The notes: generated by a model from the letters alone, not told the origin. A stretch of 64,000 nucleotides of DNA from an uncultured bacterium (GCA_963717435.1 OY970332.1:800001-864000), one strand, 5' to 3'. Numbered from the stretch's first letter, positions 147 through 43,743 are shown. Translations and numbers: made by a program.

Positions 147-233
147 ATCCCTCGATACACCCAGGCTACGCTAAAGCTTCCGACTTCGCCAAGGCTTCGA
201 CGGACGCGACGCCGGGCACTCGGGACGAGCGGG
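147..233 (-). repeat. Palindromic element (type A) with two small hairpin modules (type B) nested inside
   Basis: ATCCCTCGATAC...CACTCGGGACGAGCGG is the reverse complement of the element ends; interior holds GGCTACGCTAAAGCTTC and CCGACTTCGCCAAGGCTTCGACGG. Confidence 0.9.
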
Positions 234-276
234 TGTGTAGAATTAACTGAGATTGGCTTTAAAACTTAACTGGATT

Positions 277-1716
277 TTAGAGAATAGATAATATTCTTTC
301 AGTTGCTTCTTGGGTTCCCAACATACTAATAAGATCTTTTATGCTCGGCCCATTTTCGATGCCCATTAAAGATATTCTTAGTATCCCGTAAAGATTACTC
401 TTACTGGCAAGATTTTTTTGCTTGCACGTAGCTTGTAGGTTATTAATAAATAACTGCGGGTTATTAATAGAGCCAGATTTCAGCTCAGCTTTTATTATAT
501 CTTTGAATTCTGAGATATTTAGCTTCTCTAAATTTTCTTTAATATCTTGGGTGATTTTTGGACGCTCAAAATAGAAAGCCAGCCTGTCAGCTGCTTCAAC
601 CAGCGTGAACAGTTCACTGTGAACAAATTTAAGTAGACTCTCAAGTTGATCTTCTGTCAGATTTTTTGCAGACGCAAATCTGTTTTCTATAAACGGTCTT
701 GTTCTTACTGCTAGCTCTTTTATATCAAGAAGTTTTAGCCAGCTATGGTTAACCCAGCGTAGCTTTTCAAGATCGTACCGTATTTTACTAGTTGAAGCGA
801 TCTCTTCAAAATTAAGCTCTTTTGATAGCCCTTCAAGATTCATGATCTCTTTTTTGAACGATCCGCCAATAATTGCAAGATAGTTGCATATAGCTTCAGG
901 TATGAACCCTGAATTTTTAAGATCATCAAGCGAAAAGCCGAAGTCTCTCTTGGATAGCTTTTTGCCCTCATGATTTATAATTATGGGCAGGTGCCAAAAA
1001 ACTGGGATAGGGGCGTTAAAGGCCTCGTATAGTGCAACTTGTCCTGCAGTGTTTGTAAGATGGTCCTCACCTCTGAATATATGGGATATTTTCATCACCA
1101 TATCGTCCACGAAGTTGGCAAACATAAATGTAAAACTGCCATCTTGCCGGGTTAGGGCAAAGTCTGAAAAATGGCTAAGATCAAAACTCATGTTCTTGTG
1201 GCCAAGATCAAAAAAGTTAACTTTTTTTGTTGAGTCTAACTTGAAGCGCCAAATAAACGGCATATTTTTTGCCAAATTTTCTTCTATTTTCTCTTTTGGC
1301 AGATTAAGACAGGTACGGTCATACTTTGGGGGTAGCTTTAAAGCTAGTTGGCGCTGTCTCTTTCTTTCAAGCTCTTCTTGGGTGCAGAAGCATCTATAAA
1401 CCAGATTTTTAGTTTTTAAAATCTCAAGATGGGTTTTGTATATCTCTGTCCGTTCAGATTGGTAATATGGCCCATACTTTTCTGCTCTACCCGGTCCCTC
1501 ATCAAACTCAAGATGCAGCCAGGAAAGATCGGCCATAATTTTATTTGCTCGAGGGTCGACATTGCGCTGTTCGTCCGTATCTTCTATGCGTAAAATGAAC
1601 GTGCCATTTTTCTGCTTTGCAAATAGATAATTGATTAAGGCTGCCCTTACATTACCCAGATGCATAACCCCAGTTGGTGAAGGGGCAAAGCGTACGCGTA
1701 TAGAACTATTATTCAT
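277..1716 (-). CDS. gltX: Glutamate--tRNA ligase
   Basis: RVRFAPSPTG, HLGN (HIGH-like), LRIEDTD, RGEDH, KLSKR (KMSKS-like); start placed at second Met of the ORF. Confidence 0.97.
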   Translation of the reverse strand: MNNSSIRVRFAPSPTGVMHLGNVRAALINYLFAKQKNGTFILRIEDTDEQRNVDPRANKIMADLSWLHLEFDEGPGRAEKYGPYYQSERTEIYKTHLEILKTKNLVYRCFCTQEELERKRQRQLALKLPPKYDRTCLNLPKEKIEENLAKNMPFIWRFKLDSTKKVNFFDLGHKNMSFDLSHFSDFALTRQDGSFTFMFANFVDDMVMKISHIFRGEDHLTNTAGQVALYEAFNAPIPVFWHLPIIINHEGKKLSKRDFGFSLDDLKNSGFIPEAICNYLAIIGGSFKKEIMNLEGLSKELNFEEIASTSKIRYDLEKLRWVNHSWLKLLDIKELAVRTRPFIENRFASAKNLTEDQLESLLKFVHSELFTLVEAADRLAFYFERPKITQDIKENLEKLNISEFKDIIKAELKSGSINNPQLFINNLQATCKQKNLASKSNLYGILRISLMGIENGPSIKDLISMLGTQEATERILSIL

Positions 1717-1863
1717 CGCAAATCCTGTCAAATCCTGAACTATTTTTTAATTTAAAAAACTGACTTTAGCTTTAATATACTACAAAAAAGTTATCTTTGA
1801 CATATGTAAATTAATTTTGTTAGGGTTATCGCAAAAAGGAACTCTTTAAAAAAGGAGAATAGT

Positions 1864-2142
1864 ATGAATAAGTGTGTACGAATAACCTGCAGTCTTTCAA
1901 AATTTAATGCAAAGATCCCTCCCGAGATACAGAAATATGCCAAAAAATATATTGTTGAGGGATTTGTTCAGGTCGCTCCTGAACAGCTCCAGATAACAGC
2001 CTGCGGCCTTAAAGATAACGTAGATTTGTTTGTCGATATTATACACAAGATCTGTGTTCAGGACCCGGAAAAAGATCTTCTTGAGGTTGAGCCATTTTTG
2101 AAGGACAAAGATTACCGGGGTATATTTAGAATAATAGAGTAA
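1864..2142 (+). CDS. Acylphosphatase-fold protein, apparently degenerate
   Basis: 92 aa; AcyP-like pattern (A..Y.VEGFVQ...QITACG...VDLFV...F.II) without the GxVQGVxFR loop; AGGAG RBS. Confidence 0.55.
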   Translation: MNKCVRITCSLSKFNAKIPPEIQKYAKKYIVEGFVQVAPEQLQITACGLKDNVDLFVDIIHKICVQDPEKDLLEVEPFLKDKDYRGIFRIIE

Positions 2143-2220
2143 TTTTGCTTATATTTCCCCCAAGAAATTATTAAATAGTTATGCTATAATAACTCTGTTT
2201 AGTGGTTTTTTGGGGGGACA

Positions 2221-5200
2221 GTGAGACTTATTAGCTTTATCACAAGATATATTAAATTTTTTTGGGTTCTTGTCTTTACCAGTTTTTTAAGTTTTTTAAT
2301 TAACGCTTCCGGTTTTGATATAGATTTGAATTTGGATTGGCAAAAAATCGGGTCGATTTTGGATACAAAATTGCCAGATAAATTTCTGCTTTCAAGTTTT
2401 GATTTAGAATCTGATTTGTCTATAGACAATTTTGAAAAAAACTTGCTGTTTGATTTTGAGATTGGCAAAACTCTGTCGCGTGACAAAATTAAATTTGTGT
2501 TGCTAAATTTGCGAAAAAAGAGCCGATTTGAGTCTGTTAGAGTTGAGCTTGAAGAATTAAAACCCAACAACTATAAACTATTTTTAAGACTAAAAAGTTT
2601 TTGGATATTCTCCAAAGTTAAAATAAAAACCAGAATCTCAGATAAAAACAGATATTTGCAGAGCTATCTTTTAAAGTTTGGCGAAAAATTTGATAAAGAA
2701 AAGCATCAGCATTCTGTAGAAAAAATAAAAAGTGAGCTGCAAGCTGACGGCTACTTGGGCGCCAATGTAATAGACGAAATAAAACTTGATGAAGCAAGAA
2801 AAACTGTTTCTGTTAATTTGACATTAGAAAACTTGAAAAAGTTTGTTATAAATAGTTTCGATATTAAAATTACTTCAACAAGTGGCGAATTTGAAGATAA
2901 AAATCTGCTGCATAGTAAGCTTTTAAAAATTGCCAATTCTGATCTTAATAATAGTTACTATAACAAAGCTGTTATAGATAAATTTGCTCAAACAGTTAAA
3001 AATTATTTATTTAAACACGGCTATTTTGTAGGCAAGATAGGCTTTCAAAATTTTATCGATTATAAAAATCATAAAGTAAAAACTGATTTCTCTGTAGAAC
3101 TTGCCTATAAGAAAAAGCTTATCTTTTTTGGTAACCATTTTTTTGATAATAATCAGTTGATTTCTGAATTAGTAGTTTTTGGTCAGTCTGCGCTTTTAAT
3201 GCCCGCCTCTATGCTTGTTGACCAACTTGAGACTTTATATAAAAAACGGGGATTTTGGGACATCAAGATAGATTACAGGGACGAGCAGGGTTCTTATTAT
3301 TTTGTTATTAACGAGGGTTGTAGGGCAAAGATAGATTGCGTTGAGATTATTGGTGCAAGTCTTGATAGCAAGCTTGATAATAAGCTTGAAAATAATTATC
3401 AAGAGTTAATTAACAGTTGTTTTGGTGAGCTAACAAAATCTAAATTTTTTGATTCCCAAACATTAAAGCAGTCGTTAGATAAGCTCAAAAATAGATACAT
3501 GCAAGATGGTTTTTGGGATTTTTCAGTTATTGAACAAAAATTTGTGTCTGTTAATTCAGAAAGTAATTTAGAAAGTAATTCAAAAAATAGCCCCGAAAAT
3601 AATTCGGGAAATTACAAACTTATTTTGCAAATAGAAGAGGGTCCGCAAAGACTTCTTGGGCAAGTAGAAATAGAACGTTTTCCGGAACTATTGCAAATGG
3701 GACCATTTGCAGATTTTTATCAACTAAAAACAGCTGTCCCGTTTAATATTAATATTATAAAAGAGCAGCGGGATTATATCTCTAATTATTTAAAACAAAA
3801 CGGTTATATTTACACTTATTGTAACCCGGAATTTGTTCAAGATAATAATACTAATAATAATTCGGGCTTATTAAAGCTTGTTTGGAAAATCGTTGGCGAA
3901 ACTAAACCGGTCAGGTTTGGAAAAACAATAATCCAAACCAATTCGAAGGTTCCAACAGAAATTATAATGCGTGAGCTTGATTATAAAGAAGGGCAAATTT
4001 GGAGCAAAGAGAAGCTTGAGCGTTCTTTGAAAAATTTAAAAAATTTATCGATGTTTGAATATGTTACTTTGGCCCCATCAGAATTTAACAAAGCCGAAGA
4101 GAATAAAGACATAATATTAAAAGCGCTGTCAGACGACCCGTTTGAGATCAGAACGCGTATCGGGTTTCAGCTTGTTAGTAATAATCTTATAATTTTTAAT
4201 GGCGGGTATAGTTACAAACTTGGTGGTAGCTTGCTATGGAAAAACCCGTTTAATCGAGCAGATATATTAAGAGTTGACGCAGATTTTTCTAGATATAAAT
4301 CAGATGTTGTTGCCGCTTATGAAGTTCCCTGGATTTTTGGCTCATCGATAAGAACAACTTTTAAGGGTTATCGATCACGATATGATCAGCCATTTGTTTT
4401 TGGCTCACCGCAAATTTTATATAAAGCTTCTCAAGAGGGAATTTTGGTTGAGTTGAATAAAAATTTTAGCCATTGCGATTTTGTCTCTAATTTTGGTTTT
4501 GAATTTATGAAAATTAGCGATCTTTCACGTACGCTCGCAGCTTTTATAGACTACTGCCCAATACTTGTCGATTGCAGGATCCCGTATCTGTTTTTTGAGC
4601 CATCTATTTTTATCGACCATCTTGATAATAAATTAGAGCCGTCGCATGGCAGTTTAACTGTTATGTCTTCAAAACTTATGGGCGCACCACATTTGCCTAG
4701 ATCTTACTTTTTTAAAATATTATTTGAACGATCAAATTTTTACCCAATATTAAGTAATATCTCTAATAATATAGTCGGTGCGTTTAGGTTGCGCTTTGGC
4801 TATATTTTTAACCCAGAGTTTAGCAATATTAACCCGATAGAAAGATTTTATCTTGGCGGTGCTTATTCAGTTAGAGGCTACGAACAAGATAAGGCCCCGC
4901 CTGTAAATTTCACGAAACTATCTCCAACTGGTCAACCTGAATGTATTGTTCAGCTTGGCGGAAAAGCGATGGTTAATATTAACACAGAGCTTAGATTCCC
5001 GATTTACCAATCTTTTTCTGGGGTTGTTTTTAATGATATCGGCGCACTTGCCCAAGATAAAATTACAGATATTATCACAAGTAATTTTGTCGGTTCTACT
5101 GGTTTTGGGCTTCGTTATAACACACCTGTAGGCGCACTTAGATTTGATCTTGGATTTAAATGGAAAAAACGCTTTGTTGGCGACTCGCCATATGCATGGT

Positions 5201-5226
5201 TCTTGACGCTTGGAGAAGCGTTTTAA
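2221..5226 (+). CDS. Omp85 family (BamA/TamA-like) outer membrane protein with POTRA domains
   Basis: ERFYLGGAYSVRGY motif, GFGLRYNTPVGALRFDLG, terminal Phe; N-terminal signal and POTRA-like repeats. Confidence 0.92.
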   Translation: MRLISFITRYIKFFWVLVFTSFLSFLINASGFDIDLNLDWQKIGSILDTKLPDKFLLSSFDLESDLSIDNFEKNLLFDFEIGKTLSRDKIKFVLLNLRKKSRFESVRVELEELKPNNYKLFLRLKSFWIFSKVKIKTRISDKNRYLQSYLLKFGEKFDKEKHQHSVEKIKSELQADGYLGANVIDEIKLDEARKTVSVNLTLENLKKFVINSFDIKITSTSGEFEDKNLLHSKLLKIANSDLNNSYYNKAVIDKFAQTVKNYLFKHGYFVGKIGFQNFIDYKNHKVKTDFSVELAYKKKLIFFGNHFFDNNQLISELVVFGQSALLMPASMLVDQLETLYKKRGFWDIKIDYRDEQGSYYFVINEGCRAKIDCVEIIGASLDSKLDNKLENNYQELINSCFGELTKSKFFDSQTLKQSLDKLKNRYMQDGFWDFSVIEQKFVSVNSESNLESNSKNSPENNSGNYKLILQIEEGPQRLLGQVEIERFPELLQMGPFADFYQLKTAVPFNINIIKEQRDYISNYLKQNGYIYTYCNPEFVQDNNTNNNSGLLKLVWKIVGETKPVRFGKTIIQTNSKVPTEIIMRELDYKEGQIWSKEKLERSLKNLKNLSMFEYVTLAPSEFNKAEENKDIILKALSDDPFEIRTRIGFQLVSNNLIIFNGGYSYKLGGSLLWKNPFNRADILRVDADFSRYKSDVVAAYEVPWIFGSSIRTTFKGYRSRYDQPFVFGSPQILYKASQEGILVELNKNFSHCDFVSNFGFEFMKISDLSRTLAAFIDYCPILVDCRIPYLFFEPSIFIDHLDNKLEPSHGSLTVMSSKLMGAPHLPRSYFFKILFERSNFYPILSNISNNIVGAFRLRFGYIFNPEFSNINPIERFYLGGAYSVRGYEQDKAPPVNFTKLSPTGQPECIVQLGGKAMVNINTELRFPIYQSFSGVVFNDIGALAQDKITDIITSNFVGSTGFGLRYNTPVGALRFDLGFKWKKRFVGDSPYAWFLTLGEAF

Positions 5227-5328
5227 TTAAAACACTTCTAATTAAAAAAATTGATAAATTTAAGAAAAAGTTGATACTAGAGTAAATTTATTTTTGCTTG
5301 TTTCTAATAATTAATTCGGGAGAAGTTT

Positions 5329-6624
5329 GTGTTTTTGTTATTATTTTTTTCACTAATTAGCACTTTTTGTCAAAATTTAATTAGCGCAAATCCGGATATA
5401 TATAACTATCCCGGAGGCAATGGGAATTTGGGTTTTGGCGGGTATTATAATACAAGTTTTAAAACTGGAAATCTGTTGGCATATAGAATAGGTACAGATC
5501 AAGGTAGCTTTATTTATCTGACACGTTTTTCCAATGGCTCTGCGCAAAATGTATTACAGGTTCCGGGTAGTAATCTTGGTTATGACGGCCCATACAACTG
5601 GTGGAAAATTAGAGATGACGGAAAACTTTTTGCGTGTAACATGCTACAAGATAATTCGATTGCTGTTTTTGAAACCAGTCAGGGCAAGCAAATTATAAAT
5701 TTGCCGTCATACCAAAATAACTACAATTCTTATTTGCATTTTGATAAAACTGGACGATATATTTACAGCTTGGTTGGCAACGATTTTTATGATAGTAGCA
5801 TAACAGGCGGTGTGATATGGGATCTTAAGCAGCAAAATCTTCCCAGATATTTTAAGTACCAAGATTCGCCCTATGTTCAGAATACAAAATACTGGAGAGT
5901 GATGCCCAAGTTTGTCAAAGCACCGGATGGCTCCTCAAGATTATTAACGTGCTATCAAAACTTGATCTATATTTACAACTGTGAAACTGGCGCTGTGATT
6001 TCTGCCACTCAAGTTGACGGAATTATTTATGAGCTATCTTATGACACACAAAATAATCGTATTCTTGTTGCTTTAAGTAAACCAGATACTGCTGAATATT
6101 TTCCAGAAATACAAGACTGGTGGGGTCAAGATAAATTTAGAATTTTAAGCTTCGATATAGATTTAAAGTCGCAAAAAATTTTATCGGGTTGGAGCGTTCA
6201 GTGCAAAGGGATATGCTTTGGTGAAGATGGAAGCCGATTGGCTGTAAAATTTGCAGGAGCTGATCCGGTTAAATCTCCGGGCCTTATTAATTTATATAAA
6301 ATAGACGGCGACAAAATTATTGACGGGCCGATTTTATATCATCCGGGCCCGTATAAGAATTATGGTGATCGCCCATATGAAGCGTTAATGTTCAAATTTA
6401 ATGAATCTGGAAGTAGATTAATTTCCAATACCAACTTTTGGTATAATGTCACGCTTGAATCACAAACTGTAATATTATGGGAGACAGGCACCGGTCAAGT
6501 TATACAAAAGATAACACATGGCGACTTTGGTGCCGACTTTGAAGATGTCTGTTACTCAGAAGATGAATTCGGAGGATCGATAGTGCTTATGGGCTATTTT
6601 CAATTTGGCGTATGGGATATATAA
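5329..6624 (+). CDS. Secreted WD40-like beta-propeller protein (copy 1)
   Basis: Signal peptide; repeated blades ending in VFET/IWDL/IYNC/LWET/VWDI. Confidence 0.8.
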   Translation: MFLLLFFSLISTFCQNLISANPDIYNYPGGNGNLGFGGYYNTSFKTGNLLAYRIGTDQGSFIYLTRFSNGSAQNVLQVPGSNLGYDGPYNWWKIRDDGKLFACNMLQDNSIAVFETSQGKQIINLPSYQNNYNSYLHFDKTGRYIYSLVGNDFYDSSITGGVIWDLKQQNLPRYFKYQDSPYVQNTKYWRVMPKFVKAPDGSSRLLTCYQNLIYIYNCETGAVISATQVDGIIYELSYDTQNNRILVALSKPDTAEYFPEIQDWWGQDKFRILSFDIDLKSQKILSGWSVQCKGICFGEDGSRLAVKFAGADPVKSPGLINLYKIDGDKIIDGPILYHPGPYKNYGDRPYEALMFKFNESGSRLISNTNFWYNVTLESQTVILWETGTGQVIQKITHGDFGADFEDVCYSEDEFGGSIVLMGYFQFGVWDI

Positions 6625-6652
6625 AATTTGTTAATTAATTCAGGAGCGAATT

Positions 6653-7982
6653 ATGGTTTTCTTATTACTTTTTTCACTAATTACTGTTTTTTGCCAAAAT
6701 TTAATTTCCAAAGAAACCCCGCTTAAATATTCTCAAGTTAACGCAAATCCGGATATATATGACTATCCTGGAGGCAAAGGGAATAGTTTTTTTGGCGGCT
6801 ATTATACGTCAAGTTTCAAAACTGGAAACCTTTTGGCCTATAGAGTGGGGACAGATAAAGGTGGCTTTATTTATTTGACACGTTTTGCCAATGGCTCTGC
6901 GCAAAATGTATTGCAGGTTCCGGCTAGTAATCTTTCTTATAACGGCGAATATAACTGGTGGAAAATTAGAGATGACGGAGCTCTTTTTGCCAGCAACATG
7001 TTACAAGATAATTCGATTAGTGTTTTTGAAACTGGTCAGGGCAAGCAGATTTTAAATTTTCCGTCATACGAAAATAGCTGCAATTCTTATTTGCATTTTG
7101 ATAAAACTGGGCGATATATTTACAGCTTGGTTCAAAAACTTTTACGATAGTTACATATATGGTGGGGTGATATGGGATCTTCAGCAACAAAACCCTCCCA
7201 GATATTTTAAGTACCAAGATTCGCCCTATGTTCAGAATACAAAATACTGGAGAGTGATGCCCAAATTCATCGAAGCACCGGATGGCTCTCCAAGATTATT
7301 AACATGCTATCAGAACTTGATCTATATTTACAACTGTGAAACTGGCCTAACAATTTCTGCTACTCAAGTTGACGGAATTGTTTATGGATTATCTTATGAC
7401 ACACAAAATAATCGTATTCTTGTTGCTTTAAGTAAACCAGATACTGCTGAATATTTTCCAGAAATACAAGACTGGTGGGGTCAAGATAAATTTAGAATTT
7501 TAAGCTTCGATATAGATTTAAAGTCGCAAAAAATTTTATCGGGTTGGAGCGTTCAGTGCAAAGGGATATGCTTTGGTGAAGATGGAAGCCGATTGGCTGT
7601 AAAATTCGAAGGGGACGATCTAATTAAATCTCCGGGCATTATTAATTTATATAAAATAGACGGCGACAAAATTAGTGATGGGCCGATTTTATATCATCCG
7701 GGACCGTATAATAATTATATTGAGTTGGAATACCAAGCACTAATTTTCAAATTTAATGAATCCGGAAGTAGATTAATTTCCAACAGCAACTTTGAGTATG
7801 CCCCATGGATGAATCGGGACCAAACTGTGATGTTATGGGAGACAGATACCGGTCAAGTTATAGAAAATATAACACATGGCGACTTTGGTTATGACTTTAA
7901 TGACGTCTGTTATTCGGAAGATGAATTTGGGGGATCGATAGTTCTTATGGGCTATGAAAACTTTGGTGTATGGGATATATAA
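6653..7982 (+). pseudogene. Secreted beta-propeller paralog (copy 2) split by a frameshift near 7133-7143
   Basis: ORFs 6653..7150 and 7098..7982 together align end to end with copy 1; 7 nt (CAAAAAC) replace 9 nt (GGCAACGAT). Confidence 0.8.
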
Positions 7983-8070
7983 AATTTATTTGTAATTTTG
8001 TTGTTTTGCTTAGCGAAAAAAATAATACTTGCTGGTTTGTTTATTGCTATTACTAAATCGGGAGAGAGTT

Positions 8071-9507: not shown

Positions 9508-9612
9508 ATTAGATTTTAAGCATTTGGGCAATTTTCAAAAAACAGTATTTAGTGTAATATTAATCTAGTTTTAGGTAATAATAGTTTAATAATTTATTTA
9601 AGAAAAAATATT

Positions 9613-10317: not shown

Positions 10318-10333
10318 TCTGAGAGATTATATT

Positions 10334-10464
10334 AAATTAATTTTTTATGGTTCGATACACCCGTCACCTGATCCCGCGCTCGCCCTGAGTGTTTTTCGAA
10401 CGTAGTGAGAAAAATGTATCGAAGGGTGCCGGGCACTCACCACGAGCGGGTAAAAAATTAATTT
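10334..10464. repeat. Composite nested palindromic element, copy 1
   Basis: 14-bp inverted flanks 10334-10347/10451-10464; outer type A (-) 10347-10449 encloses inner type A (+) 10377-10427. Confidence 0.92.
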
Positions 10465-10473
10465 TCGTGAACC

Positions 10474-15300: not shown

Positions 15301-15308
15301 CTTTAGAA

Positions 15309-15438
15309 AAATTAATTTTTTATGGTTCGATACACCCGTCACCCAATCCCGCGCTCGCCCTGAGTGTTCTTCGAAGCTTGGCGAAGAAGAATGTATCGAA
15401 GGGTGCCGGGCACTCACCACGAGCGGGTAAAAAATTAA
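15309..15438. repeat. Composite nested palindromic element, copy 2
   Basis: Near-identical to 10334-10464; outer type A (-) 15322-15426, inner type A (+) 15352-15404, different innermost hairpin. Confidence 0.92.
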
Positions 15439-15458
15439 AATACTTTTAGAAAAAATTT

Positions 15459-17537
15459 GTGATTTTAAATAAAATTTATAACAAATTTAAGATTATTGGA
15501 TTAAAGCGAACGTGTGAGCTTGTAAAAAACAAGTTTGCCAGTTCGCTTTTTTTGTTCTTAAACAGAAGACGGGCAAAAATAACCCGTTATATGGGCAAAA
15601 CTGCAAATTACAGTTGGCCGGAAGTCTCGAGTAAATTAAAATTTGATAAAGATTTTGAAAAATTCTGGGAAAATTTTTGCAACAAAAAATCTTATATTAA
15701 TTTTAATAATTTTTTAGAAACTTTAATAACTGATTATAATCTTGATAATCAGGCAAGCATCCCAGATAAAAACTGTGTTAAACTTCTTCAAGAATTCTCT
15801 TCCCCGCTCGTCCCGAGTGTTCTTCGTAGCTTTAGCGTAGAAGAATGTATCGAGGGATCGAGTAAACCCAAGTGGCACTATGATCTTAACGGGTTTTATT
15901 TTGACGCAAATATTTTTTATAAAGACATAAAAATACAAGCTAATATTGGGGAAAATATCGGGCCGGATATCAGAACACTGTGGGAAAAAAACAGATTTAA
16001 TAATATTTTTTTTCTGGGCATAAATAATTCACCGGACAAATTTTTCAGTGACATAAAAGACTGGATAGATAAGAACCCATATTTATATGGGCCCAATTGG
16101 GTTTGCCCGATGGAAGTAGGAATCAGGTCGGTTAACTGGGTTTTGGGCTTTATGTTTTTTAAAGACATAAAATTTGGTGAGCCAAAACAGAAATTTGAGT
16201 TTTGGGAAAAATTTATCTGCTCACTTTATGACCACATGATTTTTATAGAACAAAATTGGGAAATTTATGATACACGAACAAATAACCATTATTTGTCAGA
16301 TCTACTGGGGTATTATTACTTATTAATATTTTTTGATAGTTTAGGCGCAAAAAATTTAAAATCTAAAATTATTTGGGTAAAAAAAGAGTTTTTAAAAGAG
16401 CTTGATAAGCAGATATTACCCGACGGCTCTAGTTACGAGGGCTCGACGGCTTATCATAATTTAATTTGTGAAATAGTTTATTATTTTAAAATTTTAAGTG
16501 ATCAAGAAGAGTTAAAAAATAATTATAATAAATTACTCGACCAAAAATTTAAAAATATGTGCCAATTTGCAAGTTATTTTTATCTTCAGGACCCTAAAGT
16601 TAAAATACCGAAGCAACTTACGCCGCTCGTCCCGAGTGTTCTACGAAGCTCAAAGAGCGAAGTAGAATGTATCGAGGGATGGCGGGGGCAAAATTTTGTG
16701 ACAATAGGCGATAACGACTCGGGCAAAATTGTCGCGGGCCTGCCTGAAAAATTTTTTAAAGTTACTAAATTTGATAACTTGCCCGAAATTGCGCACTTTA
16801 AGGATTTTGGAGTATCTGTTTATAAATCACCGAATATACACATAACTTTGCGCCATCATGCATATAATAAATTACAACCAAGTGCTCATTTCCATAACGA
16901 TTTTTTAAGTATCACGTTAGCAATAAACAATATTCCGGTTATTATCGATCCTGGTTCTTATGTTTATACCGCTTCAAGTTATTGGCGAAATTATTTTCGC
17001 AGCGCTGAATCCCATAATGGGTTTTATATTAAAAATTTAGAACCTGTCAAACTCGATAATTACAATCTTTTTGCTCCCGATATTCCCGAAAAAATTCTAG
17101 AAAATAATAGTCTAAAAAATAATAATGGCATTAAAAAATCGATAGTGTCTAGTCACGAGCTTTATAAAAATCTGGGCCTAAGAGCGGCAAGAAAAATTGA
17201 ATTAGAAAATTTAAATAAAAATATAATTGTCACAGATTCCTGGGATAGTATTTGGGAGAATATTAATAAAACAAACTTAGAAAATCTTGAGAATCTTACA
17301 ACTGTCTGGAGCTTGATTTTGCACCCAGATATTAAAGCAATAAAGCGGACAGATAAGTCTTGGGATCTTTTTTACAACAATATTAAACTTGCGAACATAA
17401 GCTCCAAAGATCTTGATTTTGAAGCAGATTCCTCATGGGCAAGTTTTGTTTATGGCGAAAAAATCGCTGCAACCAGATTAGCCGCGCAAAGCAGCTTGAA
17501 ATTAAAAAATTATGGCTGGCAGATAACTATTTTTTAA
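15459..17537 (+). CDS. Heparinase II/III (alginate-lyase-like) family protein carrying two in-frame palindromic inserts
   Basis: WH.D, WEKNRF, NW.CPMEVGIRS.NW, NNHYLSDLLG, DGSSYEGSTAYH, IGDNDSG, H.HND.LS, IDPGSYVY, FRS..SHN. Confidence 0.88.
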   Translation: MILNKIYNKFKIIGLKRTCELVKNKFASSLFLFLNRRRAKITRYMGKTANYSWPEVSSKLKFDKDFEKFWENFCNKKSYINFNNFLETLITDYNLDNQASIPDKNCVKLLQEFSSPLVPSVLRSFSVEECIEGSSKPKWHYDLNGFYFDANIFYKDIKIQANIGENIGPDIRTLWEKNRFNNIFFLGINNSPDKFFSDIKDWIDKNPYLYGPNWVCPMEVGIRSVNWVLGFMFFKDIKFGEPKQKFEFWEKFICSLYDHMIFIEQNWEIYDTRTNNHYLSDLLGYYYLLIFFDSLGAKNLKSKIIWVKKEFLKELDKQILPDGSSYEGSTAYHNLICEIVYYFKILSDQEELKNNYNKLLDQKFKNMCQFASYFYLQDPKVKIPKQLTPLVPSVLRSSKSEVECIEGWRGQNFVTIGDNDSGKIVAGLPEKFFKVTKFDNLPEIAHFKDFGVSVYKSPNIHITLRHHAYNKLQPSAHFHNDFLSITLAINNIPVIIDPGSYVYTASSYWRNYFRSAESHNGFYIKNLEPVKLDNYNLFAPDIPEKILENNSLKNNNGIKKSIVSSHELYKNLGLRAARKIELENLNKNIIVTDSWDSIWENINKTNLENLENLTTVWSLILHPDIKAIKRTDKSWDLFYNNIKLANISSKDLDFEADSSWASFVYGEKIAATRLAAQSSLKLKNYGWQITIF
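15804..15858 (+). repeat. Type A palindromic element, intragenic and in-frame (PLVPSVLRSFSVEECIEG)
   Basis: CCGCTCGTCCCGAGTG-TTCTTCGTAGCTTTAGCGTAGAAGAA-TGTATCGAGGGAT. Confidence 0.95.
16623..16680 (+). repeat. Type A palindromic element, intragenic and in-frame (PLVPSVLRSSKSEVECIEG)
   Basis: CCGCTCGTCCCGAGTG-TTCTACGAAGCTCAAAGAGCGAAGTAGAA-TGTATCGAGGGAT. Confidence 0.95.
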
Positions 17538-19993: not shown

Positions 19994-20026
19994 AACAAGA
20001 GCGGGATTTTAAATCTCGCTCTTGTT
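19994..20026. terminator. Probable bidirectional intrinsic terminator
   Basis: AACAAGAGCGGGAT / ATCTCGCTCTTGTT hairpin between convergent genes. Confidence 0.75.
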
Positions 20027-20074
20027 ATTGTTTAAGAAATTTAATACTTAAGAAATTTTAGGTTTGTTTGGTTT

Positions 20075-22351: not shown

Positions 22352-22497
22352 AATTCCACTTTTAAGCTAAATAACCTAACCCATTCAAGATAGATTTTAA
22401 CTAAGTTATTTACAAAAAGTCAAATCTTTGGGAAAAAATATTTTATACTGTATCTGTATATTAAGATAAAAATAATGCAGAGATGTTATTAATATTA

Positions 22498-23121: not shown

Positions 23122-23148
23122 AGTTCTATGTTCCTTAAATATTTCAGG

Positions 23149-23871
23149 TTAAATAACTATTTCTTGATAGCCCTGCGCATCAAATTTATACTCAGATTTA
23201 ATTGGTGAAAAGTACCTTTTTACTTTAAAGAATTTTACGGCATTTAAGGCTGTTGATATCCCTTGTTTTGCATAGATATCTGGTAGCTCCAAGTTTGGAT
23301 CGTCATTGGATTCAAAGTGGCCGGTTGGTATATATATATAACTTGGTTTTGAAGAAATTAATAGTATGTCAGCGGGTAAATTTGGACCAGTTATGTTTTT
23401 TTCTGATACGTTCCAAAAATATTTTTTAGTTCTTTTATCAAATACTTTGTCGAATTTATACCACCTTGCGTCTTCTGGTTTTGATAGTGCAAAATGGTGA
23501 ATAGTGTTTGAGGTCATAAAAACCGGCTTAATATTTTGGGAAACAACAATATTAACTGTATTAGATTTTGTTTTTCTTAAAAATTTTATTTGGCCGTTAA
23601 TATCAGAAATAGAAAAATTACCCATATAAGAAACAAATATGCCGGTATTATATAGCTCTTTAAACATGTTCTTTGTTATCGAGTGAGTAGTTTTTCCCGG
23701 GATCTTAAGTTTTTTTGATACTTTTTCTCCAGATTTAAGATCTTGTCCAAAATATGGCCTTATAAAAAAAGTTAAAAGTTGGTTATTAGCTTGTTGTGGA
23801 AAACTTATTTTTATATTTAGTAAACTAATTATCGTTACCTTAATTGCAACCAAAATAATCTTTTTCTTCAT
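23149..23871 (-). CDS. Hypothetical exported protein
   Basis: Long ORF; MKKKIILVAI signal-like N-terminus. Confidence 0.7.
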   Translation of the reverse strand: MKKKIILVAIKVTIISLLNIKISFPQQANNQLLTFFIRPYFGQDLKSGEKVSKKLKIPGKTTHSITKNMFKELYNTGIFVSYMGNFSISDINGQIKFLRKTKSNTVNIVVSQNIKPVFMTSNTIHHFALSKPEDARWYKFDKVFDKRTKKYFWNVSEKNITGPNLPADILLISSKPSYIYIPTGHFESNDDPNLELPDIYAKQGISTALNAVKFFKVKRYFSPIKSEYKFDAQGYQEIVI

Positions 23872-23982
23872 ATTTTTTCCTACTGTTTTACACTTATCAA
23901 GACTTAAGCACAAAGCTTAAGTACAAAAACACTGTACCAAACTTAACAAACAAAAGTCTATGCTATGGGTGGGGTTACTAAA

Positions 23983-24630
23983 ATGATAAATAAATCTGAG
24001 ATGAATTCAGCTGAAATTTTAAATGTATGGGCAGAGTTCCAGAAACAATTTGAGCTTTCAGATGACCAACTTTCAAAGTTTCAATTATATTTTGACATGT
24101 TGATTGCCAATAACGAACTTTTTAATATTACAGCAATAACGGGACTGCGCGAGGTTGTAAAAGATCATTTTGCAGATTCGCTATATATATCTAATTTTAT
24201 AGATTTTCAAAATATTAAATCTATTTGTGATGTTGGATCAGGTGGAGGATTCCCGGGAATTCCACTTAAAATCAAATATCCCCATTTAGAAGTTTGCTTG
24301 ATAGAGGTGACTGGAAAAAAGATTGCTTTTTTGCGCAATGTGATACAGAATTTGGGTCTAGATAAAACACAAATTTATACTAACGACTGGAAAACATTCT
24401 TGAGAAAAACCGATTTTAATATAGATCTATTCTGTTCAAGAGCTTCTTTGCAACCTGAAGACTTGGTTAGGGTTTTTAGCCCTGCATTTAACTATAGTAA
24501 TTCTCGTCTTGTATATTGGGCATCTAAGTTATATGTTCCAGGGGAAAAAGTAATAAAATATTTGGAAAAAACTGAAGAATATAAAATAGGTAATAAAGCC
24601 AGAAAATTAGTTTTCTTTAAAAAAGATTAG
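23983..24630 (+). CDS. rsmG: 16S rRNA m7G527 methyltransferase
   Basis: N..FNITAI, HFADSL, DVGSGGGFPGIPLKI, KKIAFL, SRA. Confidence 0.92.
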   Translation: MINKSEMNSAEILNVWAEFQKQFELSDDQLSKFQLYFDMLIANNELFNITAITGLREVVKDHFADSLYISNFIDFQNIKSICDVGSGGGFPGIPLKIKYPHLEVCLIEVTGKKIAFLRNVIQNLGLDKTQIYTNDWKTFLRKTDFNIDLFCSRASLQPEDLVRVFSPAFNYSNSRLVYWASKLYVPGEKVIKYLEKTEEYKIGNKARKLVFFKKD

Positions 24631-24639
24631 AGAGGCAAC

Positions 24640-26040
24640 ATGAAAAAACCTTTATTTTTAAGTTATATTTCGGGAGTTCAGGACCATCTTGAACAAGGTC
24701 AAAGTTATCCAAAAATATTAAAATATTTCGTTCCTGAACTAGTTACCGCAACAGTATTTTTATTCTGTACGTCGATATTTGATAGTTATTTTATAGCCCA
24801 TCTTAAATCTACTTCTTTGACCGCAACGCAGGGGGTCACAACTTCTTTGTTGCATGCGATTATCAAACTGTCTGAGGGGTTATTGGTCGGGGCCGTTGTT
24901 ATTTGCGGTCAGTATAACGGGATTCAAGACTACAAAAAAGTTGGTAAAGCTCTGTCTAACGTTTTTTGGCTAACGGTAATTTTTGGCGCGACTATCGGGA
25001 GCTTTTTATATTTTTGTGCTTATTATATTTATTATTTTTATGGGGTTACTCCAAAAATGATAACCCTGGGCATGCCATTATTAAAACTTAGAGCTATAAG
25101 TATATTCTTGATGTGCATATTTTTCGGGTTTGTAGGTTTTCTGCGTGGAATTAAGAACACTTATGTCCCGATGGTAATCTCTATCGTGGGCGGTATATTC
25201 TTTGTTTTTATAGATTATGCACTTATTTTTGGTTGTTATGGTCTGCCTGAATGCGGAATTTTAGGTTCTGCCATGGCGTCGATAATACAGTATGTTGTTA
25301 TGCTAATTGCTGTGTTTTTGTATATTATTTTTGATAAAGAAAATCGAAAATTTGGAATCGAATTTTTTTCTCGTCCATCACTTAGCATGATGAAAAGTTT
25401 ATTACTTGTAAGCTGGCCCGTGATGATAGATAAAGTTACTTTGTCTCTGGCCCATGTCTGGCTGGGATTCAGACTTGCTCCTATGGGCAAATACGCGCTT
25501 GCAAGTTTTAGTGCCATAAAAGATATTGAGCGAGTTGCAATTCTGCCCGCTTTGGCCTGCGCCCAGGTGATAACATTTTTGGTCAGCAACGACTATAAGA
25601 TTCAAAACTGGGAGAGCATAAAAGTTAATATAAAAAAAGTGATTTTTATAGCAACCATACTGGTCTGCGCAATACTACTGGCAATCTCTTATAACCCAAC
25701 TTATTTTGTAAGATTTTTCGATCATAAGGGGTCGTTTACAGAGTTATCTGTCAAAGTCCTTCCTATAATCAGTGTACTTGTGTTTTTTGATTTGCTACAA
25801 TTGATTCTGTCCGGCTCTTTACGAGGCGCGGCTGACGTTAAATATGTGATGAATGTAAGGCTCGGGGTTTGTATACTATTTTTCATGCCACTTTCTTATT
25901 TTCTTTCAGGTATTAACTGGTCCAGTCCTATAACAAATTTTTTAGCTGTTTATGGGACACTTTATATTTCAAATGCCATAATGTCTTTATTTTATATACA
26001 GAGATTTCGTGGCGGTGGCTGGAAAAAACAGACTGTTTAA
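24640..26040 (+). CDS. MATE family efflux transporter
   Basis: About 12 TM helices; GQYNG, GFLRGIKNT..PM, LIFG..GLP..GI.GSAMAS, LRGAAD. Confidence 0.9.
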   Translation: MKKPLFLSYISGVQDHLEQGQSYPKILKYFVPELVTATVFLFCTSIFDSYFIAHLKSTSLTATQGVTTSLLHAIIKLSEGLLVGAVVICGQYNGIQDYKKVGKALSNVFWLTVIFGATIGSFLYFCAYYIYYFYGVTPKMITLGMPLLKLRAISIFLMCIFFGFVGFLRGIKNTYVPMVISIVGGIFFVFIDYALIFGCYGLPECGILGSAMASIIQYVVMLIAVFLYIIFDKENRKFGIEFFSRPSLSMMKSLLLVSWPVMIDKVTLSLAHVWLGFRLAPMGKYALASFSAIKDIERVAILPALACAQVITFLVSNDYKIQNWESIKVNIKKVIFIATILVCAILLAISYNPTYFVRFFDHKGSFTELSVKVLPIISVLVFFDLLQLILSGSLRGAADVKYVMNVRLGVCILFFMPLSYFLSGINWSSPITNFLAVYGTLYISNAIMSLFYIQRFRGGGWKKQTV

Positions 26041-26068
26041 TTGATATGTTTTTGAAAGAATTAAATCG

Positions 26069-26362
26069 ATGTCATTAATTACAAAAGATGAAATTTTAAA
26101 GCTAGCTAAAATTTCACAAATAGCGATAACTGAACAAGAGATTGAAAAAGTTCAGAACGAGATTGAGCCGATTTTACAATATGCTTCTATTTTAAAAGAT
26201 GTTGCGCAGGGTAAAAAAACTGATGGTTTTGAATTCAAAAACAAAAATGTAACTCGCCCTGATGTTATTGCAAGAACAGATTCTGAGATTATCATCTCAC
26301 GTGCACCACTTGCACAGGATAACTTCTTTGTAGTGCCGGCTATAATAAAACAAAATGAGTAA
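26069..26362 (+). CDS. gatC: Asp/Glu-tRNA amidotransferase subunit C
   Basis: ITKDEILKLAKIS...RPD...AP....FFVVPAI; directly upstream of gatA. Confidence 0.9.
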   Translation: MSLITKDEILKLAKISQIAITEQEIEKVQNEIEPILQYASILKDVAQGKKTDGFEFKNKNVTRPDVIARTDSEIIISRAPLAQDNFFVVPAIIKQNE

Positions 26363-26374
26363 TTTGGGGCGTAT

Positions 26375-27817
26375 ATGAACAACTTAGCATTTAAAAGTAT
26401 AAAAGAGCTTAGAGAAAAATTAGTAAAAAAAGAGATAAGTTCCAAAGAGTTATTGGACCTGTTTATTTCAAGATTTAAAAAATTTGATAAGCAGCTAAAT
26501 TCTGCTATCGAAATATTTCCAACAGATTCGATAAAATTTGAAAACGAAACGGGAGCCCTTTCAGGTATTCCAGGCCTAATAAAAGATAATATTTGCCAGC
26601 AAGATAGAATAACATCTGCAAGTTCAAAAATATTAAGTAATTACAGCGCTTCTTACGACGCAACCGTAACAAAAAGAATTAAGAATTCAGGGGCCGTTTC
26701 TATTGGCCGCGCAAATTGCGATGAGTTTGCAATGGGAAGCTCAAATGAAACTTCTTATTATGGAAAAGTTTATAATCCATGGGATATTTCACGAGCACCC
26801 GGTGGTTCAAGCGGTGGCTCAGCAGCAGCAGTCGCGGCTGGTTTGGTTCCGTGGTCATTTGGATCAGAAACAGGTGGTTCAATAAGATTGCCGGCGATGT
26901 TTTGTGGTATTGTTGGTTCCAAGCCAACTTATGGTCTTGTTTCTCGTTATGGACTACTTGCTTACGGTTCATCACTGGATCAAGTTGGTGTCTTTACAAG
27001 AACTGTTTACGATAACGCTCTGGTTCTTTCTCAAATAGCGGGGCAAGACAAGCAAGATTCAACAACTTTGTCTGTATCTGCGCAGGATTACACAAAAAAT
27101 TTAACTGGTAAAATTAAATCGGGCATGACCATAGCAGTTATCGATAATGCCCTTAATGCTGAGGGTATGGAACCAGAAATAGCACAAATATTGGAATCAG
27201 CTTTAAAAGATTTAGAAAAACTTGGCGCTAAAATTAAAAGAATTAAGCTGCCAACTATGGAATATGGCGCAGCGGTTTATTTTATGATAAGCCGAGCTGA
27301 AGCAGCATCAAATCTATCAAGATTTGACGGTGTAAAATATGGTTATCGCAGCAAGAACGCAGAGACACTTTCGGATATGTATTCAAATACAAGAGAAGAG
27401 GGTTTTGGGGACGTTGTTAAGTTGCGAATATTAATCGGTAACTATGTTCTTTCTGTTGGACACGCCGATGCTTTTTATGAAAGTGCCCGTACTGTTCAGG
27501 CTATGATGCGACAAGAATTTTTGGAGGCATTCAAAGAATGTGATCTTTTGTTTGCACCTGTCGCCCCAATTCCTGCATTTAAATTTGGTGCATTTAAGAA
27601 TAACTTAGCTTTAGACTTAATGGATTACTTTACATGTCCTGCTAATTTGATCGGAATTCCGGCGCTTTCAGTTCCGTGTGGGTTCACAAAAGAGAATCTT
27701 CCTGTTGGGTTCCAGCTTATGGGGCCGCATCTGTCTGAAGATTTAATTTTCCAGACCGCGCACGCTTATGAACTTGTTAACGAATGGTATAATAAGATCC
27801 CGCAAGACTTTGTTTAA
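26375..27817 (+). CDS. gatA: Asp/Glu-tRNA amidotransferase subunit A
   Basis: [46 protein letters not shown]. Confidence 0.96.
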
Positions 27818-27853
27818 GTTTTATAAAATTAAACTACAGAGTAATTCCCAACA

Positions 27854-27904
27854 GCCGCTCGCCCCGAGTGAAATTCCGTAGGAATTTAGTATCGAGGGGT
27901 CGGC
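27854..27904 (+). repeat. Type A palindromic element downstream of gatA
   Basis: GCCGCTCGCCCCGAGTG-AAATTCCGTAGGAATTT-AGTATCGAGGGGTCGGC. Confidence 0.9.
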
Positions 27905-27939
27905 ATAGCGTGAGATTCGTAATAAATCTAATATAATTA

Positions 27940-27969
27940 ATAAACCCGGAAAGAAAAACCCGGGTTTAT
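27940..27969 (+). terminator. Probable intrinsic terminator of the rsmG-MATE-gatCA unit
   Basis: ATAAACCCGG / CCGGGTTTAT 10-bp stem followed by a T-rich tract. Confidence 0.6.
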
Positions 27970-28068
27970 CTGTTTGAAAATTTAATAAGTCTATTATTGA
28001 TTTCTATTTGAAAAATATAATATCTTGATCTTGAGTAACTGTCGTGTGCAAAAACGTTAGGGGGAGTT

Positions 28069-28899
28069 GTGCAAGACAAGACAAGCTTACTAACAAGATT
28101 TTTTTTGATATTTACTATTTTTTTCTCTGCTCAACCAGAAGGGGACAATCGGGAGAGCAGGTGCAAAAAAATATTTACGCCAAAATATTTCAATAGAGGG
28201 CTTCATACAGTCTTGGATGATGCCTTTGGTGTTGTGGGCAATTTATTTTGTAGGGACACCCTAAAAATAATTACAGGCGCCCTGCCAATCTATCTACTTT
28301 CAAGAATGCAAGACGAGCGGATCCAAAGATCTTTTTTTTACGACAGAAAGCATCACAAGAATTTGTGCGAGCACCACTCTTTCTTTTATCATCTTGCAGA
28401 TGAAGGGGTAGCGATTCCATTTAGTGCTGCTTTAGGCGCATTTTTGTTTTCAAAAAATTGTGATTTGCATACCACTTCACGTGTTTTTTTAATATCACTA
28501 CCAATTACATGGGCGACACGATCAGCTATGAAGGAGATAAAAGTTGATTGCTGCTTGCGACCTTGGAACCAACATTTTAGTAGCAAACACAGGTCTTTCG
28601 GAGGGTTCCCTTCTGGGCATATGCTTGAAATGGCATACATGACAACTCTATATGGAATTAGATTTGGACCAAAATGGGGCGTGCCGCTTGGGCTCTATAG
28701 CGCGTTTATATTTTCTGAATTTTTAGTTTGTAACAGGCACTATTTATCACAACTTGTTGCAGGTACCGCACTTGGCGTTGCATTTGCATATTCTGCTAAC
28801 AAAACTATTGAAAGGGACTTAAAGAAAAACAGCTGGGATTTTGATGTTTCTTGCGATCGCTGCGGCAACCCAAACTTAAAAGTCTGTTATAAGTTTTAA
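28069..28899 (+). CDS. PAP2 family membrane phosphatase
   Basis: K......RP, FPSGH, RH..S motifs. Confidence 0.85.
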   Translation: MQDKTSLLTRFFLIFTIFFSAQPEGDNRESRCKKIFTPKYFNRGLHTVLDDAFGVVGNLFCRDTLKIITGALPIYLLSRMQDERIQRSFFYDRKHHKNLCEHHSFFYHLADEGVAIPFSAALGAFLFSKNCDLHTTSRVFLISLPITWATRSAMKEIKVDCCLRPWNQHFSSKHRSFGGFPSGHMLEMAYMTTLYGIRFGPKWGVPLGLYSAFIFSEFLVCNRHYLSQLVAGTALGVAFAYSANKTIERDLKKNSWDFDVSCDRCGNPNLKVCYKF

Positions 28900-28953
28900 G
28901 CTTGTTTTGTGCTTATCTGACCCAGTTCTAATGCGATACTGCTAATTTGCAGA

Positions 28954-29430
28954 TTAAGTATTGTGCTTTTCTTCAAACATATTGGTCGTAAAGCTGCTCG
29001 TCAAAATACCAACTTTAATTTTAATATTTTTGCTATCGGGTGAAATTTTACAATTTCCGGGAACATATTTGCCATGTTCGCCAGATATACTATCTAATTT
29101 AGTTAGAGAGAATGGTTTCTTTGAAATTGTGCCAGTTAAACTTGAAAAAAATTTGTCTTCTGAATAATTGATAAGATAAACATATATATCAGGAAACTCT
29201 TGGCTATCAGCAACTACGGCAATCGCGTATTTTCCATTTGGGGCCTTCACTATTTCTATGACGTTATTAAGTACTGTTGTTTTTGACCATAATTTAAGTT
29301 CGTTTTGGTCAGTTGAAAATAAAACGTGATCTTCGGTTTTAGATATAATATTTTCAGGATATTCCATAGAGAAAATATTATGCTGCGCAAGATTAAATAT
29401 AACTAAGATTTGTAAAAATAATTTGCTCAT
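28954..29430 (-). CDS. Small secreted protein (tandem paralog B)
   Basis: Signal ending IFS-ME; LKLW...PNGKYAIA...CKIS...IKIK shared with neighbour. Confidence 0.75.
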   Translation of the reverse strand: MSKLFLQILVIFNLAQHNIFSMEYPENIISKTEDHVLFSTDQNELKLWSKTTVLNNVIEIVKAPNGKYAIAVVADSQEFPDIYVYLINYSEDKFFSSLTGTISKKPFSLTKLDSISGEHGKYVPGNCKISPDSKNIKIKVGILTSSFTTNMFEEKHNT

Positions 29431-29438
29431 GTTCTTCC

Positions 29439-29936
29439 CTACTCGATTATGTCTACGCTAAACGTTGTCCTAAAGTATCCAAAAGTCTTTACCTTGATAA
29501 TTCTGCCATTCTCACTTATCTTGCAACTACCCAAATCATACCAACCTATAGTGTATATTAAGTTTGTTGAAAATTCTTCGACATCCAATATACCTGGATG
29601 AAATCGTGAGTGCATTTTACATTTTGCAAAGCTGATAAGATAAAACAATGCTTTGGGATATTTTATATCTTTTTCATCAATAGTTATGGCAATGGCATAT
29701 TTTTTATTTGGTGATTCTATTAATTCTTTAACTTCTCCAATTAAATTTGATACGTGCCATAATTTCAAATTATTGTCGTCATCCAAAAATAAGATATTTT
29801 TGATCCCATTTTTTTCTATTACAATTCTCTTTTCGTTTTTCTTGTCCTCTTCTTGATCTTGAGCAGCATCCATAGAAAAAATGTTTAAGTTTGTAAGATT
29901 TAATAAAAATAATGCTTGTAAAAATAATTTGTTCAT
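29439..29936 (-). CDS. Small secreted protein (tandem paralog A)
   Basis: Signal ending IFS-MD; LKLW...PNKKYAIA...CKIS...IKVK. Confidence 0.75.
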   Translation of the reverse strand: MNKLFLQALFLLNLTNLNIFSMDAAQDQEEDKKNEKRIVIEKNGIKNILFLDDDNNLKLWHVSNLIGEVKELIESPNKKYAIAITIDEKDIKYPKALFYLISFAKCKMHSRFHPGILDVEEFSTNLIYTIGWYDLGSCKISENGRIIKVKTFGYFRTTFSVDIIE

Positions 29937-30067
29937 GATCTTCCCAATTAATTTAATAATTAATAAATAAACATAAAATTAAGATTTTAAGTAATTTTAT
30001 CCTGTGCTATTTTATACATGAATTTTAAATTTATAAACAAAAAAAATGATTAAAATTGGGTGCGCCT

Positions 30068-30574
30068 ATGACAAAACAAGAGCGATTTGACAGAAACTTT
30101 TTACGCGTGGCTTGGACAACTGCGTTGAGCTTGTCAAAAGACCCACTAACGCAAGTTGGCGCGGTGATAGTATCAGAAGATTCACGACAAGTAAGTCTTG
30201 GTTATAACGGATTTTCTGCAGGAGTTGCCGAGCCTGAATCAAGATGGGCGCGGCCAGAAAAATATTCTTGGGTAATTCATGCAGAGATGAACGCTGTCAT
30301 GAACACTCCATTTGATACAAAAGGTTGTACGCTTTATTGCACGCACCAGCCATGTCACAGATGCATAGTTCACTTGGTTAATACCGGAATTAAAAAAATA
30401 GTTTATTATACGCCAAAGTCTGACGAGAGACCTGATATATTTCAAGAGATTTCTATGCTTTTTGATCAAGTTTATTGCATAGATTATGACGAAGTTGTTG
30501 AGAATCTAAAATCTATGTATCAAGTTGATCCTGTTAGATTTGTTGGGAAGATTTCCAGAGAAAAAAATATATAA
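30068..30574 (+). CDS. dCMP deaminase family protein
   Basis: SKDP.TQVGAVIV, GYNG, HAEMNA, PCHRC zinc motif. Confidence 0.92.
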   Translation: MTKQERFDRNFLRVAWTTALSLSKDPLTQVGAVIVSEDSRQVSLGYNGFSAGVAEPESRWARPEKYSWVIHAEMNAVMNTPFDTKGCTLYCTHQPCHRCIVHLVNTGIKKIVYYTPKSDERPDIFQEISMLFDQVYCIDYDEVVENLKSMYQVDPVRFVGKISREKNI

Positions 30575-30579
30575 ACCCA

Positions 30580-30634
30580 CCGCTCGTCCCGAGTGTTTTT
30601 CGTAGCGCAAGCGAAGAAAAACGTATCGAGGGAT
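30580..30634 (+). repeat. Type A palindromic element (left member of inverted doublet)
   Basis: CCGCTCGTCCCGAGTG-TTTTTCGTAGCGCAAGCGAAGAAAAA-CGTATCGAGGGAT. Confidence 0.92.
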
Positions 30635-30694
30635 GGCGGTAAACACTAATATTATATAATAATTTATATATTTTTATAATTGCAAAAAATGCTC

Positions 30695-30748
30695 ATCCCT
30701 CGATACAATCACCTTCACTACGTTTCGGTGATCACTCGGGACGAGCGG
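30695..30748 (-). repeat. Type A palindromic element (right member of inverted doublet)
   Basis: ATCCCTCGATACA-ATCACCTTCACTACGTTTCGGTGAT-CACTCGGGACGAGCGG. Confidence 0.92.
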
Positions 30749-43732: not shown

Positions 43733-43743
43733 AATTTAATTAG

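Follow-up and report, generated by a model that had tools for sequence, protein, structure and literature searches.

Modular hairpin repeats in a Babelota genome form a mobile family tied to a stand-alone GIY-YIG nuclease

The window analyzed here, a 64-kb stretch of DNA (C1:800001-864000) from the 1.198-Mb single-contig genome of an uncultured bacterium of the phylum Ca. Babelota/Dependentiae, contains repeated palindromic elements of about 55 bp, which belong to a genuine, genome-wide family that is mobile and has ties to a GIY-YIG nuclease. An earlier reading, made from the sequence alone and referred to below as the sequence-only reading, had listed ten copies in this window, and we recovered all ten with the same coordinates, strands, and outer and inner stems: the left motif GCTCG-N4-GAGTG has exactly 10 matches in the window and gains no further one when a single mismatch is tolerated. 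Since two of the copies are nested (10377 within 10347, and 15352 within 15322), the ten copies occupy eight places:

147..233, minus strand: element of the TCCC/GGGA type with a compound inner hairpin, 44 bp 3' of gltX
10347..10449, minus strand: outer element of the TGGT/ACCA type, its inner arm being a whole inverted element, with AT-rich palindromic arms around it, between convergent open reading frames (ORFs)
10377..10427, plus strand: nested element of the CCCT/AGGG type, inside the copy at 10347..10449
15322..15426, minus strand: outer element of the TGGT/ACCA type, a nested composite, 3' of metG
15352..15404, plus strand: nested element of the CCCT/AGGG type, inside the copy at 15322..15426
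15459..17537, plus strand: ORF for a heparinase II/III-like protein, host of two in-frame copies
15804..15858, plus strand: element in frame within this ORF, where the protein is variable and exceeds its orthologues by 7-17 aa
16623..16680, plus strand: element in frame within the same ORF, missing from 3 of 3 orthologues
27855..27900, plus strand: element of the CCCC/GGGG type with a simple inner hairpin and a C-GTA-G triloop, 3' of gatA
30580..30634, plus strand: element of the TCCC/GGGA type, left half of a tail-to-tail dimer that separates two convergent genes, a deaminase gene and tatD
30695..30748, minus strand: element of the TCCC/GGGA type, right half of this dimer

The intergenic copies in the window all lie just 3' of genes, as the sequence-only reading had also noticed. 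The two halves of the 30580/30695 dimer have the same relative orientation as a pair of copies around a GIY-YIG gene outside the window (C1:1066025-1066468). The TGGT/ACCA copies, at 10335-10462 and 15308-15440 of the window and elsewhere in the genome, have AT-rich arms (AAAATTAATTTT-like) on either side; the arms are self-complementary as well as directly repeated, and may represent an outer stem or a palindromic target that was duplicated.

Throughout the family, the tag at the 5' end (CGCTCR) is followed by a stem of 4 bp whose sequence varies (N4), a GA opposite a GA, a G-C pair and a short bulged segment (TG opposite TGTAT), all of them fixed parts; the inner part beyond them, 10-77 nt in length, is a free hairpin. 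The tag reads CGCTCR in 102 of 103 non-nested copies, and conservation has an abrupt onset at the tag and has faded about 5 nt past the 3' stem. The GA/GA tandem, which probably forms sheared pairs, the bulge and the tag are never turned into perfect pairs. Among 100 simple copies, the first and last bases of the inner core are G and A in 86 and T and C in none; the simple copies include 15 plain GNA triloops and 48 GNA/GNA internal loops. The tagged strand has 135 occurrences of the motif C-GNA-G and the opposite strand 26, while loops of the RNA type are rare (C-GNRA-G, 4; UUCG, 1). According to the available text of PMC3201870, d(GNA) loops with a closing C:G pair show unusual stability in DNA. 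Orientation shows no strand bias with respect to either transcription (17 vs 19) or replication (55 vs 52). Because of the C-GNA-G motifs and the absence of a bias to transcription, we infer that the element is a strand-specific structure of single-stranded DNA.

A strict scan of the genome identified 104 left arms, 100 of them with a right arm, and allowing GCTCA brought the total to 107 full copies; three order-3 Markov control genomes each contained none. As the inner part is not alignable, stem pairs were counted directly and no covariance model was used. The outer 4-mers are perfectly complementary in 95 of the 107 copies, compared with a mean of 35.8 and a maximum of 50 when pairing was shuffled (10,000 shuffles). 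The claim that this stem covaries perfectly, made for the window, is correct for the copies that were cited; genome-wide, 12 of 107 copies are mismatched, including an amplified CCCT/ATGG subfamily, and there are only seven distinct perfect types, so that independent covariation events are few. Outer and inner module types combine freely between copies, and at least five further copies (C1:395948, 469611, 477126, 509297 and 882093) have an extra hairpin in the left arm, between the N4 stem and GAGTG; the elements thus nest recursively. In dimers, the tail-to-tail arrangement (11) outnumbers the head-to-head one (5).

Comparison of the window with Rfam, which the sequence-only reading had proposed, produced no family for the element at the gathering threshold, the sole match being a tRNA. 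A plasmid search gave no match to the element, and the subtype with the TG..TA center was not found in the five non-Babelota genomes or records checked. Among the viral contigs, none of the 80 pattern loci listed (of at least 120) has a complementary stem; these loci are therefore chance matches, usable as a negative control.

The sequence-only reading had placed the mobilizer of the repeats outside the window and, pointing to an HUH enzyme (RAYT), had suggested a search for an enzyme gene flanked by copies. Such a gene was indeed found outside the window, although it is not of the RAYT/HUH type: in this genome (one contig, 88.8% complete by markers), neither the Y1/RAYT profile PF01797 nor DUF559 has a match. 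Instead, one of the five GIY-YIG matches in the genome (C1:1066108-1066392) is bracketed by two inverted copies, one 30 bp upstream and the other 24 bp downstream, with their tags pointing outward. The encoded protein has 94 aa, counted from the second ATG, and a single domain (PF01541, E 1.3e-16); it keeps Y7, Y17, R27, H31 and E64, and a single-sequence structure model has a GIY-YIG-like order of elements (pLDDT 67). With this 94-aa protein as the query, no relative was found in viral contigs.

We surveyed 49 distinct loci of homologues of this gene, after 10 duplicate rows and 5 weak ones had been removed. At 39 of the 49 loci, at least one flank has, no more than 200 bp from the gene, a core of the form N4-GAG...TCGA-N4' with the tag pointing away from the gene; at 26, both flanks do. 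Exactly the TG..TA subtype is found at 18 loci, other centers being CTTG/CCTG, CGNAG, GA..TC and GG..AG, and nine loci also have copies in the opposite orientation. The records that hold these loci belong to Babelota, Chloroflexota, Alphaproteobacteria, Bacteroidota, Zixibacteria and Ignavibacteria, and the same GA core with a YGTCA tag occurs at related nuclease loci. At a Methylobacterium homologue (L135:320-810), GA-core hairpins bracket the gene, the upstream one being reversed, with its tag toward the gene. By contrast, the core is found beside neither of the two other intact small GIY-YIG genes of the genome nor beside any of five YhbQ/YazA-like genes. Besides the bracketed gene there are three small GIY-YIG genes of a different type (L002:1501-1740, L003:1501-1749 and L005:1501-1640), one of them broken by a stop; two of the three lie directly behind tRNA genes and hairpins, and the element is beside none of them, nor beside any other GIY-YIG match of the genome.

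A protein of the same length, SsnA of Neisseria meningitidis (94 aa; CDD cd10448), cuts single-stranded DNA upstream of the NTS hairpins that flank its own gene, and its activity needs Y6, Y17 and E64 (Chenal et al. 2025, PMC11893778, available text). In a tree of 27 rows (L042, L136, L026 and L036 left out), the nuclease falls outside a five-member proxy clade for SRM-flanked proteins (99/92), a small clade of which four members are SRM-flanked and one, L139, was placed by sequence. It also falls outside the YhbQ/YazA clade of five (97/98).

Across 261 genomes of the phylum, the strict element pattern is present in 103, whereas a reversed control pattern gave two hits in total. With membership of the nuclease clade set at E below 1e-18, the element was found in 59 of 79 genomes with the clade and in 44 of 182 without it, and at least 20 copies were found in 22 of 79 and 7 of 182, respectively; as related genomes are not independent, these counts overstate the significance. 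The nuclease itself is patchy across genomes, often multi-copy and sometimes broken.

Of the 107 copies, 29 are located inside ORFs, in all frames and on both strands (17 vs 12), the hosts including recR, mnmG, gpsA, valS, murB, murD, miaA, glmM and transketolase. The inserts in RecR, MnmG and GpsA are missing from 13 of 13 aligned family orthologues each, and at 24-34 aa they are longer than the 19-aa element. Among the intergenic copies, 27 of 75 lie between convergent genes, such gaps accounting for 79 of 646 gaps of at least 60 bp (rough ORF calls, with dimers counted twice). Orthologous sites were also found filled and empty in a related genus, where the trmH-permease junction holds the cassette, that is, the nuclease gene with its hairpins, in G252 and G250, hairpins only in G248, and is empty (11-40 bp) in G253, G255 and G251. 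A second cassette in G253 (L056:1190-2040), bounded by an imperfect 19-nt duplicate of the 3' end of the neighboring gene, is missing from G254 and G256. When 400 kb of G252 and G253 were compared, a strict copy was present in one genome only at 11 of 148 orthologous junctions and in both at none; about four of the 'empty' partners of those 11 hold variant hairpins. A tail-to-tail dimer at G000:C1:193700-193980 has a near-perfect 45-nt direct duplication of its flank. Four sequencing runs yielded only short low-depth pieces and no joint. Insertion is imprecise, with flanking bases added and no fixed target duplication. The description of a non-autonomous, structure-conserving repeat family resembling the repetitive extragenic palindromes (REPs) and the Rickettsia palindromic elements (RPEs) is borne out, as are empty alleles at orthologous loci and a candidate partner gene beyond the window.

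In our view, the repeats are probably non-autonomous relatives of the cassette ends: gene-less versions of the two inverted hairpins around the 94-aa GIY-YIG gene, the nuclease binding the folded tagged strand and nicking beside it, and host repair or recombination inserting the hairpins elsewhere. The nuclease would recognize the tagged strand as single-stranded DNA, presumably through the fixed parts (the 5' tag CGCTCG, the 4-bp stem of variable sequence, the GA/GA tandem and the TG...TGTA bulge), so that the inner hairpin, being free of recognition, may be exchanged or lengthened, or may give way to another complete element. By analogy with SsnA, the cut would fall 5' of the tag. The single-stranded substrate may arise during replication or DNA uptake; the genome contains ComEC, DprA and a ComF-like gene, and, given the presence of ComEC and DprA, incoming single-stranded DNA is a possible substrate. 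Host enzymes would then paste the hairpins, plus some flanking DNA, into new sites, and copies would persist where they do no harm, either 3' of genes or in frame within protein regions that tolerate them. It is directly established that two copies bracket the gene, that this arrangement recurs in other genomes, that element and nuclease co-occur, that the catalytic residues are intact, and that orthologous sites are found both filled and empty.

Several observations weigh against this explanation. The tagged strand also folds better with RNA parameters (99 of 100 copies); as it is favored by both parameter sets, folding energy alone cannot choose DNA over RNA. Among 66 singletons, short target duplications are no commoner than under the null, and for flank duplications just 4 of 86 clusters score above the null's 99th percentile. 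With even the nearest relatives at only 70-80% identity, the comparison does not resolve exact junctions. Ten of the 49 homologue loci had no core in the expected orientation in the pattern scan, and the nucleases flanked by GA-core hairpins do not form one supported clade (two changes in the 27-row tree). Moreover, the 44 genomes noted above have the element with no clade member detected, and 20 of the 79 nuclease genomes lack the TG..TA subtype, the sole subtype counted. We know of no established GIY-YIG transposase. Finally, cleavage and the causal role of the nuclease are carried over from SsnA by analogy, and in the available text of Chenal et al. (PMC11893778) the mobility of hairpin-ssn-hairpin units is itself only hypothesized.

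Alternatively, the repeats may be domesticated restriction marks, at which the nuclease would cut incoming single-stranded DNA and thereby tune transformation, the repeats spreading passively by recombination. Such a role has been demonstrated for SsnA and NTS in N. meningitidis (PMC11893778, available text), ComEC and DprA are encoded in the genome, and the free combination of outer and inner modules would be expected from gene conversion. However, the cassette turns over between orthologous sites and is multi-copy or broken, as selfish elements are, and 29 copies lie inside ORFs, including recR, mnmG, valS and murB. We consider this alternative rather unlikely, and it is compatible with the preferred explanation, not exclusive of it.

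Still less probable, in our estimate, is that the elements are retained for their RNA structure, as terminators or mRNA stabilizers 3' of genes, and that the link to the nuclease is a historical leftover. Although the enrichment in convergent gaps and the better folding of the tagged strand with RNA parameters would fit such a role, the copies show no orientation bias to transcription, those in ORFs lie on both strands, the loops are GNA triloops and not GNRA or UUCG tetraloops, sites are not conserved between species, and Rfam offers no match. We give a similarly low probability to the repeats being spread by another enzyme, lost or yet unnamed (HUH/RAYT or other), with the GIY-YIG gene as captured cargo and the covariation caused by template-switch correction of quasi-palindromes and not by selection. 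The element-bearing genomes with no clade member detected are in line with this, and block changes of all four stem bases may fit template switching; on the other hand, the genome has no Y1 or DUF559 match, in several phyla the bracketed gene comes from a single family even though the hairpin subtypes differ, and the GA/GA tandem, bulge and tag have never been corrected to perfect pairs.

Elsewhere in the window, no copy lies in the 39-52 kb block, as the sequence-only reading had remarked, although this carries no information, since 472 of 1186 13-kb windows of the genome are likewise empty. This low-GC block (39582-51966) contains a cyclodipeptide synthase, ankyrin-repeat proteins, a nucleoside deoxyribosyltransferase and a MepB-like gene. 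At 53721-53900, the GC-rich hairpins behind a tRNA are related to the element in their GNA-rich style but have no element arms, and similar modules lie behind other tRNA genes. An ATP-dependent DNA ligase is encoded at 54587-56317, with N-terminal, adenylation and C-terminal domains, an architecture commoner in archaea and eukaryotes.

Beyond the preferred explanation, we tentatively propose that the nuclease represents a second cross-phylum lineage of hairpin-specific GIY-YIG enzymes, apart from Ssn and YhbQ/YazA, and is the autonomous engine of a minimal mobile element of about 450 bp. It would read a non-canonical fold of single-stranded DNA, the tag plus tandem sheared G-A pairs, and ignore the inner hairpin, so that the repeat could grow recursively and enter essential proteins. 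If this is true, it would provide a non-HUH mobilizer for tagged repeats of the REP/RPE type and a new programmable cutter of single-stranded DNA. The system offers matched filled, hairpin-only and empty alleles, a one-to-one pair of enzyme and substrate with fixed and free positions mapped by 107 natural variants, a nuclease outside the characterized Ssn clade, and RPE-style peptide insertion into about 25 proteins in a second host-dependent lineage. What mobilizes REPs that lack a GTAG end was left open by Di Nocera et al. (2013), who report finding no transposase for the CGTC-tagged REPs (PMC3733652, available text).

The statement that the repeats belong to no named family holds for the exact motif within the reach of our searches, but the arrangement of gene plus hairpins is the published Ssn/NTS layout. 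In the literature searched, which covered few subscription papers and no figures, we found no description of this motif or of such Babelota repeats; a related consensus may be shown in Fig. 2 of PMC3733652. A term search of the available text of the Chromulinavorax paper (PMC6561590) found no mention of palindromes, and the Minerva preprint, in its available part, uses SsnA loci only as a benchmark.

Among known systems, YhbQ/YazA (UPF0213) proteins include the best sequence matches of solved structure (1zg2 and 1ywl, E about 1e-14; 30-43% identity), but they form a separate clade, and hairpins lie beside none of five such genes. Unlike classical miniature inverted-repeat elements and insertion sequences, the repeats have no fixed target-site duplication. 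With REP/REPIN-RAYT systems they share a gene bracketed by inverted hairpins, gene-less dimers and a single-stranded DNA logic, although here there is no Y1 transposase match and no GTAG end. Like the RPEs of Rickettsia, they are palindromic repeats in frame in unrelated housekeeping genes of a host-dependent bacterium (PMC10969869, available text); they differ in length (about 55 vs about 150 bp), in occupying several frames and both strands, and in having a candidate enzyme at hand. The CGTC-tagged REPs, as far as the available text of PMC3733652 describes them, also have an unpaired tag at one end, dimers, sites 3' of genes, intragenic copies and no RAYT. Their tags, however, are terminal CGTC, TGTC or CCTC and not CGCTCG, their 8-9 bp stems with 4-5 nt loops contrast with the 4-bp stem, GA/GA tandem and bulge found here, and their dimers are mostly head-to-head, whereas tail-to-tail dimers lead by 11 to 5 in our genome.

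The closest parallel is with Ssn/NTS, as described in the available text of PMC11893778: a single-domain GIY-YIG gene of about 94 aa between two oriented hairpins with tags outward in both, a hundred or more dispersed copies with a 5' tag followed by an N4 stem, often TCCC/GGGA, and the catalytic Tyr, Tyr and Glu (here Y7, Y17 and E64). Conversely, the published SRM pattern, which as a control matched at L035, L132, L138 and L141, was found in none of the 107 copies and in none of the 49 homologue flanks, with one chance genomic match elsewhere. The hairpin is long and modular here, with GA/GA and a bulge, whereas NTS is a short continuous stem, and 29 of 107 copies are intragenic compared with 2% for NTS. 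The protein is 39% identical to an SRM-flanked Azospirillum homologue, whose genome is in the defining set of Chenal et al., and lacks the C-terminal W..LIE..NP.W motif of the SRM group. As for the published membership cut-offs, in their available wording, its E value to L138 is 1.5e-13, which probably lies within the cut-off of E<1e-10, while 39% identity falls short of the 60% cut-off. Judged by sequence, the system appears to work like Ssn/NTS and to be a sister version of it, not a demonstrated member, as its repeats lack the SRM motif and its nuclease lies outside the SRM-flanked clade.

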